Shown here in pieces: positions 2,792-18,622 of a stretch of DNA of 20,000 nucleotides. The stretch comes from an uncultured virus (IMG/VR IMGVR_UViG_3300032829_000007). Lineage: Duplodnaviria > Heunggongvirae > Uroviricota > Caudoviricetes. The translations under genes were made by a program, and so were the position numbers. The notes under the pieces are model-generated. The model searched no databases, had not been told where the DNA came from, and was given only the letters and a program-made list of their open reading frames with translations. The stretch is taken from the IMG/VR virus record IMGVR_UViG_3300032829_000007; one strand, written 5' to 3'. Positions within the stretch are counted from its first letter, which is position 1. Every line of letters begins with the position of its first letter.

Positions 2792-3343
2792 ATGAACAAT
2801 GTATTATTTTTAAATTTCAATGAAATTTACAATAAGTATTACAATGATGTTTTTAATCTCATTAAGTTTAAGATTAACAATAAAGTTGAGGTTGCTGAGG
2901 AATTAACCAATGATGTTTTTCTCCGGGTTTCCAAACATTTAAATGATTTTGACTCTAGTAAGAGCAAATTAACAACATGGATTTTTACAATAGCTAATAA
3001 TATTGTTATTGATTATTATAGAAATAATTCAATACAAATAAAAGCGGTTAGTAGTGATCTTATAAAAGGTTTGGACATTGTTAATAATAATCATAACGAT
3101 AATGTTATGAGTGTTATTAATAGTGAAGAAATTAAGAAAAATGTTAATATTGCTATTAACAGGCTTAGTGGAGTTTATAAAATTATTGCTAAACAATATT
3201 TTTTAAACGAATTAAGCTATGAGGAAATTTCTGAACAGAATGAAATTCCTTTAGGCAGTATTAAAGCCTATATTCATCGAATAAGAGAAATATTAAAAGA
3301 AAATTTAACCAGTATCAATATACATATATTGGTAGAAAATTAA
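2792..3343 (+). CDS. RNA polymerase sigma-70 family ECF sigma factor (SigW/RpoE-like)
   Basis: Region 2 motifs VAEELTNDVFLRV and KLTTWIFTIANNIVIDYYR. Region 4 HTH LSYEEISEQNEIPLGSIKAYIHRIREILK. 183 aa is typical ECF size. Confidence 0.93.
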   Translation: MNNVLFLNFNEIYNKYYNDVFNLIKFKINNKVEVAEELTNDVFLRVSKHLNDFDSSKSKLTTWIFTIANNIVIDYYRNNSIQIKAVSSDLIKGLDIVNNNHNDNVMSVINSEEIKKNVNIAINRLSGVYKIIAKQYFLNELSYEEISEQNEIPLGSIKAYIHRIREILKENLTSINIHILVEN

Positions 3344-9767: not shown

Positions 9768-9992
9768 ATGAAAAAAAATAAACATACTCCTAAATGTATT
9801 GTTGAAATTTTATTTAAAGTAAGTATTTTACCTTTAATAAAACAAAAATATGAATCTAATGGAGTAAAAAATTTTTCAGTTCGTACTATTGCATGGTATA
9901 ATTTTACTGATTCTCTTTGTAAAAATGGTAATATATCTAAAAATCATTATAATATTTGGACATTACCTGATTTTTGTCAAAAAAGTAAATAA
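9768..9992 (+). CDS. hypothetical protein, paralog of 10016-10240
   Basis: Shares ILP.IK...ESNG.K.F..R..AW..FTDSLCK.G.IS...YN.W.LP..C.KS.K with the next ORF. Confidence 0.75.
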   Translation: MKKNKHTPKCIVEILFKVSILPLIKQKYESNGVKNFSVRTIAWYNFTDSLCKNGNISKNHYNIWTLPDFCQKSK

Positions 9993-10015: not shown

Positions 10016-10240
10016 ATGAAAACATCATTTTTAACTAAAAAGGCTGTTGAAAATTCTTTTAAATCGGAAATTCTGCCAGCAATTAAAGAAAGGCACGAAT
10101 CTAATGGTATTAAGGATTTTCCTGCACGTTCTGAAGCATGGAATTTTTATACTGATTCTCTTTGTAAAGATGGTTTAATATCCACAAACCAATATAATAA
10201 TTGGGGTTTGCCTAAATATTGTGAAAAATCAAATAAGTAA
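10016..10240 (+). CDS. hypothetical protein, paralog of 9768-9992
   Basis: Tandem paralog; both proteins are 74 aa. Confidence 0.8.
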   Translation: MKTSFLTKKAVENSFKSEILPAIKERHESNGIKDFPARSEAWNFYTDSLCKDGLISTNQYNNWGLPKYCEKSNK

Positions 10241-14779: not shown

Positions 14780-14956
14780 ATGAAAAATCTTAATTTTAAA
14801 AATGATAATGTACAAAATAATATTGATGTTGATTCAATGGCTAATCATATTTTAAAACAAATTGAGGCTGCAAATAAAGTTGGAATAAAAACCTTTACTT
14901 ATACATCAATGGAGGAAGTTTTTGATGTTAAATCAGAATTTTTGGATATAAAATAA
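14780..14956 (+). CDS. small hypothetical protein (58 aa)
   Basis: MKNLNFKNDNVQ...SEFLDIK*, ATTATG start. Confidence 0.6.
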   Translation: MKNLNFKNDNVQNNIDVDSMANHILKQIEAANKVGIKTFTYTSMEEVFDVKSEFLDIK

Positions 14957-14990
14957 TATTATTGATAATTTATTATTGATAATTTATTAT
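14957..14990. repeat. short tandem repeat TATTATTGATAATT x2.4
   Basis: Direct 14-nt duplication seen in the sequence. Confidence 0.6.
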
Positions 14991-15015
14991 AACATTATAT
15001 AAAATTTATCGTATA
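14988..15015 (+). promoter_or_regulatory. ECF-type promoter (TATAAC-N16-CGTATA)
   Basis: Motif upstream of ATG 15041. Confidence 0.75.
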
Positions 15016-15040
15016 ATATAGTATAAAAAACAAATAAAAA

Positions 15041-15244
15041 ATGATAAAAAAAATTATAATTAAAATCGGTGATAATGTTGAGTTATTCAATGGAACTTTT
15101 GGGGTTGTTTCAGATATTGATTATGGTACTTATAAAATAAAAATATCTGGTGAACATAAATATCCTATATGGTTTCATATTCTTAACATTCATTATCTTA
15201 ATGGAATTGATTGCGAAAATAATTATATTGCATTATCTTTGTAG
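15041..15244 (+). CDS. hypothetical protein (KOW/SH3-like)
   Basis: IKIGDNVELFNGTFGVVSDI pattern. Confidence 0.65.
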   Translation: MIKKIIIKIGDNVELFNGTFGVVSDIDYGTYKIKISGEHKYPIWFHILNIHYLNGIDCENNYIALSL

Positions 15245-15253
15245 TATTATTAA

Positions 15254-15281
15254 TGTAACTTTTAATAAATTTTATCGTATA
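15254..15281 (+). promoter_or_regulatory. ECF-type promoter driving ORF 15309 and the mini-array
   Basis: TGTAAC-N16-CGTATA. Confidence 0.85.
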
Positions 15282-15308
15282 ATATTATAACATTTAAATA
15301 AAATAATT

Positions 15309-15698
15309 ATGGAAAAGATATTAAAAATTAATGTACCTGAGGGTTATGTTATTGACAATGAAAAATCGACATTTGAAAATATTGTTTTTAAATCTATTGA
15401 AAACAATAATACTGAAATACTTAAAGAAATGTCAGATTTTTTATTTAGTATGATTAACGGTACAACAATAAAAATCACTGGAGAAAAAGAAATAACTCAT
15501 TATAATAGTAATAGTGAATGGATTATTCAACAGGATTATAAAAATGGTTATCTTTATATAAATTATTATAAAATTTGGAAAGTTTTTGAAGAAAAATATA
15601 AACTTAAATATAATGAGATCAGAGATTTCATTAGATGTTGGGTAGAAACTAATACCAATTGGAATGGACTTACACCTGTTAAAAAGACACTTATATGA
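15309..15698 (+). CDS. array-associated hypothetical protein (C-terminus encoded by repeat 1 and spacer 1)
   Basis: 129-aa ORF with its own promoter. VETNTNWNGLTP comes from the repeat, and the TGA stop lies in spacer 1. Confidence 0.8.
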   Translation: MEKILKINVPEGYVIDNEKSTFENIVFKSIENNNTEILKEMSDFLFSMINGTTIKITGEKEITHYNSNSEWIIQQDYKNGYLYINYYKIWKVFEEKYKLKYNEIRDFIRCWVETNTNWNGLTPVKKTLI

Positions 15699-15873
15699 AC
15701 AAGTTTGGTAGAAACTAATACCAATTGGAATGGACTTACACCATTCCTGAGATTCACTCATACCATTGGTATGGTAGAAACTAATACCAATTGGAATGAA
15801 CTTACACCTTGCCAGGGCAATGAATGGCATATTAACTGGTAGAAATCAATACTAATTGAAATTAACATATATA
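15641..15873 (+). CRISPR. CRISPR-like mini-array: 4 repeats (last degenerate), 3 spacers, no cas genes in the window
   Basis: Repeat GGTAGAAACTAATACCAATTGGAATGGACTTACACC (36 nt) at 15641-15676, 15707-15742, 15773-15808 (1 mismatch) and 15838-15873 (degenerate). Unique spacers are 30, 30 and 29 nt. The + orientation is inferred from the promoter and the degenerate trailer. Confidence 0.88.
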
Positions 15874-15912
15874 AAAAATACATAAATTTGTTTAATCTTT
15901 AAATTTTAATAT

Positions 15913-16104
15913 ATGAATGAAAATTATTATGAAATTAATTTAATGAGTAATAAGCTTTTTTTAAAAAGTTATTACTCAAAAGTATTGCCTAATGTAAATG
16001 ATAAAATTAGTTTATCAGAGAATGAGGTTTTTTTTGTTGAGGAAAGATTATTACCTTCTACTGATTCAAATAGAATTGTTTTATTTGGAATAATATTAAA
16101 ATAA
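15913..16104 (+). CDS. hypothetical protein
   Basis: 63-aa ORF immediately downstream of the array. Confidence 0.65.
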   Translation: MNENYYEINLMSNKLFLKSYYSKVLPNVNDKISLSENEVFFVEERLLPSTDSNRIVLFGIILK

Positions 16105-16108
16105 ATAA

Positions 16109-16762
16109 ATTTCTGATAAAATTTTAGATTTTATAGCTAATTTAATATTTTATAAAGATACATCAGAATTAAATAAATTAAGTTTACAATGTTTTTTTAG
16201 TGATTTATCAAAATTACCACAAATTAAAAAATTTGCATATGATAAATTAATAGAAATATGTAAAGAACAAAAGATTTATTTTTTTGAGGTATCTGACAAT
16301 ATTATAAATAAAAATGTAACAAATGAAAATGAAAAAGCTGCCGGAAAATATACATATTTAAAAGGAAAAACAGTTATTGAAATGAATGAATCAACAAATA
16401 AACTTATTGAATTATCAAAAAAATGTAATAGAAATGTTGAATTAGATGATTATTTTCCCAGAATTTTAATAAATGTTAATAATGATGAAGATAAATATAA
16501 TGTAATGACATTAGCTCATGAATTAGGGCATCATTTTATAAATGTTAATGGTGAAGATCAAAGTGAAAATTTAGCAGATAAATTTATATATGATATATTT
16601 TTAGTTTATTTACCCGATTTTTTTATTGCAATTGAACATATTATGTTAGGTATAAAATTAAAAATAAATTATGGATTAGATATTGATTATAAAAAAATGT
16701 ATAATAGTTATCTTAAATTTAGAGAAGAACATCCCGAAATGAAACTACCAATATTAAATTAA
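16109..16762 (+). CDS. ImmA/IrrE-family metallopeptidase (start uncertain)
   Basis: TLAHELGHH...SENLADKF motif. The frame stays open 91 codons upstream of ATG 16382, back to ATT 16109. Confidence 0.75.
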   Translation: MSDKILDFIANLIFYKDTSELNKLSLQCFFSDLSKLPQIKKFAYDKLIEICKEQKIYFFEVSDNIINKNVTNENEKAAGKYTYLKGKTVIEMNESTNKLIELSKKCNRNVELDDYFPRILINVNNDEDKYNVMTLAHELGHHFINVNGEDQSENLADKFIYDIFLVYLPDFFIAIEHIMLGIKLKINYGLDIDYKKMYNSYLKFREEHPEMKLPILN

Positions 16763-18112: not shown

Positions 18113-18622
18113 ATGAAAACTCAAAAATCTATATTAGGTAAAACAACAGGTAGTTTAATAAATTATGTTATGGGTAATAATAAAACTTTACCTGAAGTAG
18201 GAAAAGGCGCAACAATTTTATCATGGTCAGATAGACATGCTTATGAAGTAATGTCTATTAGTGAAGATGGAAAAAGAGTTATTATACAAAAATATTTATC
18301 TGAGCGTATTGATACCAATGGTATGAGTGAATCTCAGGAATATAAATATGAAAAATTAAATGGTTTTGATGAAGTTATTGTTTGGCGAAATAATGCATGG
18401 AGAAAAGAAATAATAGAAATAGTTTTTACAAAAGAATATGGTGAATATGTTAAAAATAATTTAAATGATTTTTGGAAAACTGAAGATTATAAATTATTAT
18501 ATCCTAATAATGAAATACAATTGCAACATGTTATTAAAGGTAAAACAAAACTTATAAAAAAATATCCTAAAGTAAATATTATTTGGGGCATAAAAGACGA
18601 ATATTATGATTATTCATTTTAA
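18113..18622 (+). CDS. conserved phage protein of unknown function; contains the protospacer for spacer 2
   Basis: PEVGKGATILSWSDRHAYEV...DEYYDYSF motifs resemble a widespread phage hypothetical family (recognised by eye). Confidence 0.8.
   Translation: MKTQKSILGKTTGSLINYVMGNNKTLPEVGKGATILSWSDRHAYEVMSISEDGKRVIIQKYLSERIDTNGMSESQEYKYEKLNGFDEVIVWRNNAWRKEIIEIVFTKEYGEYVKNNLNDFWKTEDYKLLYPNNEIQLQHVIKGKTKLIKKYPKVNIIWGIKDEYYDYSF
18312..18341 (+). other. protospacer: exact reverse complement of spacer 2 (15743-15772)
   Basis: ATACCAATGGTATGAGTGAATCTCAGGAAT, 30/30. The match ends exactly at the spacer boundaries. Confidence 0.95.

Follow-up and report, generated by a model that had tools for sequence, protein, structure and literature searches.

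An AT-rich wetland phage carries a CRISPR-class array anchored in a small gene's coding end

The DNA analysed here is a stretch of 20,000 nucleotides (nt), referred to as the window, from an uncultured virus of the Caudoviricetes (IMG/VR record IMGVR_UViG_3300032829_000007). The phage is uncultivated, AT-rich and from a wetland, its relatives are jumbo-sized, and the GC content of the window is 21%. In the window, a small gene of 129 amino acids (aa) runs directly into a short array of the CRISPR class, and the first repeat of the array is the conserved coding end of the gene. The features of the locus, including its open reading frames (ORFs), are as follows, in window coordinates.

15271-15283, + strand: promoter-like motif TTTATCGTATAAT, ending in TATAAT; the identical motif recurs at 15005-15017, in front of the small ORF that precedes the gene
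15309-15698, + strand: small gene, 129 aa, the last conserved 12 codons of which are repeat 1
15641-15676, + strand: repeat 1, 36 nt, inside the ORF and encoding VETNTNWNGLTP, the conserved C-terminus
15677-15706, + strand: spacer 1, 30 nt, containing the TGA stop codon of the gene (15696-15698); absent or replaced in a near-identical variant
15707-15742, + strand: repeat 2, identical to repeat 1
15743-15772, + strand: spacer 2, 30 nt, identical in reverse complement to window positions 18312-18341
15773-15808, + strand: repeat 3, with one mismatch
15809-15837, + strand: spacer 3, 29 nt
15838-15873, + strand: degenerate terminal repeat, 26/36 identical (10 mismatches)
18312-18341, − strand: protospacer of spacer 2, within the orphan ORF 18113-18622 (+ strand)

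The geometry reported in the initial annotation of this DNA, namely 36-nt repeats, spacers of 30, 30 and 29 nt and a degenerate last repeat, was confirmed at positions 15641-15873. Sequences matching the repeat with at most three mismatches occur three times in the window, against 0.00 expected from 200 shuffles. As had also been described, repeat 1 is read in the frame of the ORF as VETNTNWNGLTP, the gene is closed by the TGA within spacer 1 and the array is leaderless; repeat 1 and the sequence 5′ of it are both conserved coding sequence, and a non-coding AT-rich leader is lacking. The array agrees with the generic definition of CRISPR in its identical direct repeats of a length between 23 and 55 nt and in its unique spacers of near-constant length. 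A scan of positions 14800-16400 against Rfam gave no CRISPR-DR match up to E = 10 and no other family, and the RNA of the repeat has no significant fold (z −0.35 to −0.93). The locus is a genuine CRISPR-class array that has, as its leader-proximal repeat, the 36 nt with which the conserved coding region of a small phage gene ends. This classification rests on the geometry (36 + 30±1 nt), the pattern of repeat identity, the polarity and the captured spacers, the last two of which are treated below. The reported lack of a cas gene in the window also held, as none of the 14 largest ORFs was Cas-like in a PADLOC search and the largest ORF in the window is 382 aa. Among GenBank phages, no DNA match to the window region or the array and no protein match to the small gene were found.

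A promoter had been placed at 15254-15281. The motif TTTATCGTATAAT and its upstream copy speak for one at 15271-15283, which is plausible and not proven because consensus promoter matches in DNA of 21% GC are near chance (26 found in the window, against 19.7±4.3 by chance). Just 5′ of the first copy of the motif lies an exact 14-nt tandem duplication (TATTATTGATAATT twice, 14957-14984). About 70 nt past the array, within ORF 15913-16104, an inverted repeat with 16-nt arms, 88% complementary, and a 3-nt loop (15944-15978) could terminate a gene-array transcript; a terminator scan made no call there. On the − strand, an antisense ORF of 129 aa (15441-15830) runs across the array and into the 3′ portion of the gene, which is unusual at 21% GC, and similar antisense ORFs of 53-91 aa are present in 10 loci. 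Two of the antisense frames of the repeat are without stops, and the antisense ORF is therefore probably a by-product.

An alternative genetic code, in which TGA would be read through to give a protein repeat of 22 aa, was ruled out. The + strand ORFs of at least 60 aa (n = 40) end with TAA in 37 cases, TGA in 2 and TAG in 1, and reading TGA as sense gains only 66 aa across all ORFs; the standard genetic code applies.

Homologous loci were assembled from a viral collection (n = 12) and from metagenomes (n = 31), which together with the window gave 44 loci and 34 distinct gene/array states, four of them truncated by a contig edge. An array of two to six copies of the last 36 nt of its own gene was present in 26 of the 34 states (two copies in 12, three in 6, four in 6, five in 1 and six in 1), and the remaining eight, one of which lies at a contig edge, had the gene without an array. 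At each locus it is the own gene's last 36 nt that is duplicated, and exactly so. The unique spacers (n = 51) measure 30 nt in 41 cases, 29 nt in 6 and 31 nt in 4. In loci L043 and L044, which encode homologs of 30-35% identity, the geometry is unchanged and the repeats are quite different; L044 harbours three genes within 2.2 kb, each with its own array and repeat variant. In the wider protein superfamily, a second copy of the own 12-mer follows exactly 22 residues on in 40 of 180 proteins, and these repeated 12-mers diverge as widely as LETHLKDESLTP and VERAFKHKVSTP. Since very divergent repeats each form arrays, the site seems to be defined by its position in the gene. Among the homologs, the 3′ end of the gene is consistently the first unit of the array, and the sequence of the repeat changes together with that of the C-terminal peptide; gene and array, which had been suggested to form one module, are conserved as a module without cas genes in cis. 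No neighbouring gene is conserved with them, the best co-occurring gene cluster being found in 4 of the 34 loci.

Some peculiarities of single loci were noticed. In L003, L004, L017 and L018 the fifth repeat of six carries the two-base variant that characterises the paralogous array of the same genome (L002/L016), an indication that units are exchanged between arrays. Directly 3′ of the gene or array in L006, L007 and L008 (duplicates L022, L023 and L026) lies a small HNH-type endonuclease gene, called from its motifs; in L008 the start codon of this endonuclease gene falls within the overlap with the degenerate last repeat. A solitary, slightly degenerate family repeat lies far from any family gene in the relative G001 (207260-207295).

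A word-indexed search gave 44 homologs of the 129-aa protein at E ≤ 0.01, and a profile search of 1.84 billion representatives extended these to a superfamily of 921 clusters at E ≤ 1e-3. In the alignment, conservation along the protein is highest in the peptide that repeat 1 encodes: W111, E113, N115, G120 and L121 are conserved at 90% or more, W118 is invariant, and the similarity among homologs stops directly after "GLTP". Elsewhere in the protein, the conserved polar residues are D43, E59, D76 and K78. The AlphaFold2 model is confident (predicted local distance difference test, pLDDT, 86.7), and the duplicated unit begins within the last helix of the modelled fold. Pfam, PHROG, PADLOC and the Protein Data Bank (PDB) gave no assignment, a Foldseek search against PDB returned no match at E ≤ 0.001 and a PDB profile search none. 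The best match in the VIA wide structure search (Z 4.9) was to helical bundles, with weak three-helix matches to DNA-binding folds, and the structure atlas returned only unnamed viral clusters at a template modelling score of about 0.4-0.5. Pfam matches over the homologs were all sub-threshold (Ntox23 in 7/44, RVT_1 in 6/44 and ArgoMid in 5/44). Identity as a PD-(D/E)xK nuclease was considered and is unsupported by the fold and family searches. A word search for longer or fused forms of the protein found none, and the superfamily members P0104 and P0145 had no loci in the viral collection. Three superfamily members, P0047 (760 aa), P0065 (588 aa) and P0084 (346 aa), hold three to five tandem family domains in one stop-free ORF, and each domain is trailed by one to three units of 12 conserved and 10 variable residues.

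In 33 distinct gene ends, the entropy at codon positions 1, 2 and 3 was 0.61, 0.45 and 1.03 in the repeat and 0.92, 0.73 and 1.17 in the flanking coding sequence. The pattern is the same in both, and repeat 1 is under selection at the protein level. Synonymous alternatives are common in the repeat (AAT 16 versus AAC 14; GGA, GGG and GGT; TTA, TTG and CTA), and together with the codon-like entropy they argue that between lineages the repeat drifts as a protein-coding segment. The penultimate codon of the repeat, where it encodes Thr, is ACA in 29 of 29 cases, while another Thr codon is ACT in 8, ACC in 5 and ACA in 4; this is one sign of an extra constraint at the nucleotide level at the 3′ end of the repeat. 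Judged by their sequence, the downstream repeats are recent copies of the coding repeat. Duplication followed by divergence cannot explain the array, since repeats that are identical at synonymous sites flank unrelated spacers, and the spacers of 29 and 31 nt indicate that the ruler measures DNA and not codons.

Degeneration affects the distal repeats: copy 4 in the window has 10 mismatches, and successive copies have 0/2/4 mismatches in L006 and 0/0/3/3 in L019. The ancestral end of the gene (Pro-Asp-Lys-stop) is found behind the last repeat in L001 and L002. A protein 98% identical to that of the window, P0001, ends in GLTP-EHH-stop as compared with GLTP-VKKTLI-stop in the window, and its tail matches no window spacer in frame. 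The wetland sequencing run X2 contains a gene variant of the P0001 type (3-nt deletion at 15506, G>A at 15514) and also window positions 15714-16215, with spacers 2 and 3, at 100% identity, and spacer 1 is covered by no contig. Contigs of the three wetland DNA runs break at the repeats, so that array variants are not directly shown; indirectly, these sequences suggest that the near-identical variant differs in the proximal spacer and shares the distal ones. Decay and turnover are polarised, with the new end beside the gene, as in CRISPR arrays in general, which grow at one end and have a degenerate terminal repeat.

The spacers include captured DNA. Spacer 2 of the window is identical over 30/30 nt to the reverse strand of 18312-18341, that is, to another gene of the same phage, and a transcript of the array would be antisense to the mRNA of ORF 18113-18622. 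In L008, spacer 2 matches a NinB/Orf-like gene just upstream of the family gene at 27/30 nt, likewise antisense, and the two target genes encode unrelated proteins. Self-derivation as a rule was rejected, as none of eight spacers in G001 (218 kb, 66% complete) and neither of two in the complete relative G002 match their own genome. In the viral collection, no target was found for the cores of L019 spacer 1 and L002 spacer 2, and the full L008 spacer 2 was found only in its own array. No spacer target of the window array was found in GenBank phages. Relatives of the target gene in the window are only 40-54% identical and therefore too distant to carry the protospacer. The self-match in the window may represent regulatory antisense, a trace of the capture of own DNA or a liability that is avoided through a missing flanking motif.

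The complete relative G002 (364,702 bp, with direct terminal repeats, 100% complete) was scanned for interspaced repeats without bias, and besides two gene-embedded arrays one further array was detected. This array has six 36-nt repeats (GTTGTAAAC...CTTACAAC) with spacers of 30, 30, 29, 30 and 30 nt, and it begins 221 nt downstream of a 482-aa ORF (region G002 217417-219451, equal to L055:17417-19451). The ORF belongs to the TnpB/IS605 OrfB family and matches the Cas12u3 (3e-82) and Cas12f (1e-78) models over the full length of the models; its closest GenBank phage proteins are only distant TnpBs with 31-33% identity. Gene and array are a candidate for a minimal phage-borne type V locus in its own right, about 14 kb from the gene-embedded arrays. 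A tRNA-His gene lies about 50 nt past the free-standing array.

Aligned without gaps in the same 36-nt register, the free-standing repeat of G002 matches the 32 distinct family repeats at a mean of 21.2/36 positions (range 17-25), with the maximum of 25/36 for the repeat of the window. Random 36-mers of G002 gave 9.5±2.1, the observed values were not reached once in 99,753 random 36-mers or in 20,000 shuffles, and shifting the register lowered the mean match to 8-15.6. The gene-embedded and the free-standing repeats belong to one repeat family, in the same register. When translated in the register of the gene, the free-standing repeat reads L-stop-T-T-T-N-stop-K-V-L-T-T versus V-E-T-N-T-N-W-N-G-L-T-P, and its two stops fall on the codons of the conserved Glu and Trp, one base off each. 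In the simplest reading, the free-standing repeat would descend from a coding repeat that was freed of its coding constraint. A different TnpB-like ORF of 412 aa occurs in G001 (214945-216183; L093:14945-16180), which has three gene-embedded arrays; it matches Cas12u4 (2e-69) and contains the domains HTH_OrfB_IS605, OrfB_IS605 and TNB.

The remainder of the window holds a sigma-factor gene (2792-3343) and small orphan ORFs by the dozen, of which almost all lie on the + strand, and it looks like an early or accessory region of a large phage. Two adjacent paralogs of 74 aa (9768-9992 and 10016-10240) each match phrog_336, to which no function is assigned.

Taken together, the locus may be a CRISPR-class, type V-like array that is anchored in a coding gene and for which the effector and the integrase are supplied in trans, a reading to which we give a probability of about 0.5. 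Gene and array would be transcribed together as one early unit, and each repeat-then-spacer unit would serve as a guide in the style of type V, with the repeat 5′ of its own spacer. Because the repeat precedes its spacer, the repeat within the gene would serve the newest spacer and the degenerate last repeat would be dispensable. The user of the guides would be a miniature TnpB/Cas12f-like effector located elsewhere in the phage or in a co-resident element, and the targets would be related phages or the phage's own transcripts. Spacers would enter at the junction of gene and repeat by a staggered-cut reaction of the Cas1-Cas2 type, provided from trans and duplicating the 36-bp target. An insertion of 66 nt (22 codons) would lengthen or retail the protein and not destroy it, which may be why the site tolerates arrays.

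Several results weigh against a type V-like system served in trans. No effector is visible in the 20-kb window among the 14 largest ORFs in PADLOC, and that of G002 is absent from five other array-bearing records, which are fragments or 66% complete; none of its relatives was traced to any family-bearing contig except G002. G001 has no free-standing array, nor does a repeat-like element lie next to its TnpB-like ORF, and in 282 kb of family loci there was no free-standing array besides that of G002. Cas1 and Cas2 models, positive in 7 and 6 of 14 control genomes, matched none of five relatives including the complete G002, and among all 158 ORFs of at least 230 aa in G002 the PADLOC search revealed no Cas1, Cas9 or Cas13. 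A crude search of 10 loci and of the surroundings of the G002 effector found no anti-repeat resembling that of a trans-activating CRISPR RNA above chance (duplex energy −13.8, against a null of −14.4±2.6). The affinity to type II or VI-B that the initial annotation had proposed was accordingly not borne out, there being no anti-repeat in the 10 loci and no Cas9 or Cas13 in the complete relative. Its suggestion of a distant Cas gained support from the TnpB/Cas12f-like gene of G002 with its homologous-repeat array; no bacterial array with the repeat was found in the genomes scanned.

The bacterial scans, in which the host of the phage is not identified and the absence of a host array is hence not proven, also belong among the unfavourable results. 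In 185,579 species genomes, a degenerate pattern modelled on the gene-type repeat had one chance match, of a single copy and inside a membrane-protein gene. A joint pattern of both repeat types gave three single matches against five control matches in 401 genomes of Bacteroidota, chosen because the named TnpB relatives come from Bacteroidales, and in the viral collection there was no exact match to the window repeat. The perfect self-match of spacer 2 would be suicidal with a DNA-cutting effector, and the fact that divergent superfamily members repeat their own 12-mers is hard to reconcile with the repeat specificity of one effector or integrase. In-frame stops in the spacers are depleted (17/52 against 26.9 expected, p about 0.003), as they are in one other frame (15 against 24.8 expected), and the spacers show a weak codon periodicity (p = 0.011); the stop depletion, together with the multi-gene ORF fusions in some lineages, means that translation may matter.

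A self-contained system, independent of any Cas or TnpB, is an unlikely alternative. The small protein would recognise the repeat that encodes its own C-terminus, and it would either direct spacer insertion at the end of its own gene or bind repeat-spacer RNA as a minimal guide carrier. It is the only component present in every locus, no neighbouring cluster exceeding 4 of the 34, and the lack of adaptation genes in the relatives, as searched with the Cas1 and Cas2 models, fits such a system. Even within one genome and among tandem copies, each paralog has a repeat that varies along with it, and, as each divergent superfamily member repeats its own 12-mer, the site is tied to the gene rather than to a fixed sequence. 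The confident fold (pLDDT 86.7) with its conserved D43, E59, D76 and K78 and its weak matches to DNA-binding folds (Z up to 4.9) would suit such a system, but the searches detected neither a family nor a fold of a nuclease, an integrase or an RNA-binding protein, the gene occurs without an array in 8 of 34 distinct loci, the repeat RNA is without significant structure (z −0.35 to −0.93) and the homologous free-standing array beside a TnpB/Cas12f-like gene puts a conventional effector on offer. The earlier proposal that the small protein binds or processes guides or acts as an effector is for want of a known family or fold, and in view of the loci without arrays, unsupported. A related reading, tentative to the same degree, is a Cas1-independent capture anchored in the coding gene, in which the gene's 3′ end takes up 30-bp fragments with duplication of a 36-bp target, perhaps through an action in cis of the protein on the gene that encodes it or on the transcript. 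The gene-end arrays would then be the birthplace of CRISPR arrays and the free-standing array at the side of TnpB a released copy of the coding repeat; if true, this would be a snapshot of TnpB gaining an array en route to Cas12.

Off-target integration by Cas1-Cas2 is a known phenomenon ('neo-CRISPR'), and the arrays might be by-products or decoys of this kind, in which the 3′ end of the gene mimics a CRISPR repeat of the infected cell and Cas1-Cas2 in trans mis-integrates spacers there. They could be neutral scars, or a sink that diverts acquisition from the host array, and would persist because in-frame 66-nt insertions are harmless. We regard this as equally unlikely. Against it count the very high prevalence of arrays (26 of 34 distinct loci), which holds over deep divergence and widely differing repeat sequences, the lack of a host array with such a repeat in the genomes scanned, and the look of the free-standing repeat, which seems to stem from the coding repeat and not the other way round; on the other hand, the gene-embedded repeat is 17-25/36 identical, in the same register, to a real CRISPR repeat, no adaptation genes were found with the Cas1 and Cas2 models and the in-frame stop depletion fits purifying selection on the outcome of insertion. 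The single spacer of own DNA would be expected if the DNA most abundant in the infected cell supplies the prespacers, but own-genome spacers number 0/8 in G001 and 0/2 in the complete G002. Far less probable is a function at the protein level, in which translated units of 22 residues (12 conserved and 10 variable) form a variable C-terminal extension and the resemblance to CRISPR is secondary. Arrays are fully open in the gene frame in L001, L025, L028, L029, L030, L031 and L043, long ORFs fuse three to five gene copies with repeat units (P0047 of 760 aa, P0065 and P0084), and the stop depletion (p about 0.003) and codon periodicity (p = 0.011) point the same way. Against these stand 10 of 52 spacers that shift the frame by being 29 or 31 nt, 17 of 52 with in-frame stops, an exact reverse-strand copy of another gene as one spacer, a duplicated unit that starts inside the last helix of the fold, and repeats identical at synonymous sites beside unrelated spacers, which is impossible by duplication and divergence.

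The type V-like array with functions supplied in trans may be compared with known systems. In the literature surveyed, no array was found described that has a gene's coding end as its first repeat, and the recurrence of the gene-array fusion over a large family points to an undescribed way of building guide-RNA arrays. Known mini-arrays of viruses have repeats identical to host arrays and are located between genes (PMC11656645). As in these viral Cas-less mini-arrays, the array is virus-borne, has few spacers and CRISPR geometry and lacks linked cas genes, and its two traceable spacers, including that of L008, match phage genes (27/30 and 30/30) (PMC11656645). Unlike in them, the first repeat is here a conserved coding end that co-varies with the gene across the superfamily, no bacterial array with a repeat of the window type was found and the one perfect match is to the own genome (PMC11656645).

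The TIGR arrays, known from phages and parasitic bacteria, have units of 36 nt in which two repeats of 8-12 nt alternate with two spacers of 9 nt, and they require a Tas protein with a Nop domain (PMC12045711). The likeness to TIGR-Tas consists in a non-canonical guide array that is mostly phage-borne, beside a small protein and without adaptation genes, while the window differs in its single 36-nt repeat, its 30-nt spacers and the lack of a Nop domain (PMC12045711). MIMIVIRE R349 of mimivirus is similarly reported to have short repeated elements related to another genetic element inside a viral ORF; unlike the window array, its repeats are four 15-bp copies of foreign sequence, without unique spacers and without the 36/30 geometry.

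If the arrays are functional, a guide array can have its root in a protein-coding sequence and, with no cas genes linked to it, be spread along with a family of genes, and array finders that demand non-coding repeats or nearby cas genes would miss arrays embedded in genes. The case also poses a testable question, that of spacer acquisition without adaptation genes, which is relevant to phage-borne and to miniature type V systems.

The miniature type V and TnpB-derived systems (Cas12f and type V-U) share with the window the 36-nt repeats, the spacers of about 30 nt and the lack of an adaptation module, and like type V-U, G002 has an array of homologous repeats downstream of a TnpB/Cas12f-like ORF without Cas1 or Cas2. 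TnpB guide RNAs also overlap the 3′ end of a coding gene. Unlike in Cas12f and type V-U, the overlapped gene is here an unrelated 129-aa orphan and not a nuclease, the effector is unlinked (about 14 kb off in G002 and unseen in the window) and no anti-repeat was found. The pair of a gene-embedded and a homologous free-standing array is a concrete system for how TnpB-type nucleases came to use CRISPR arrays.

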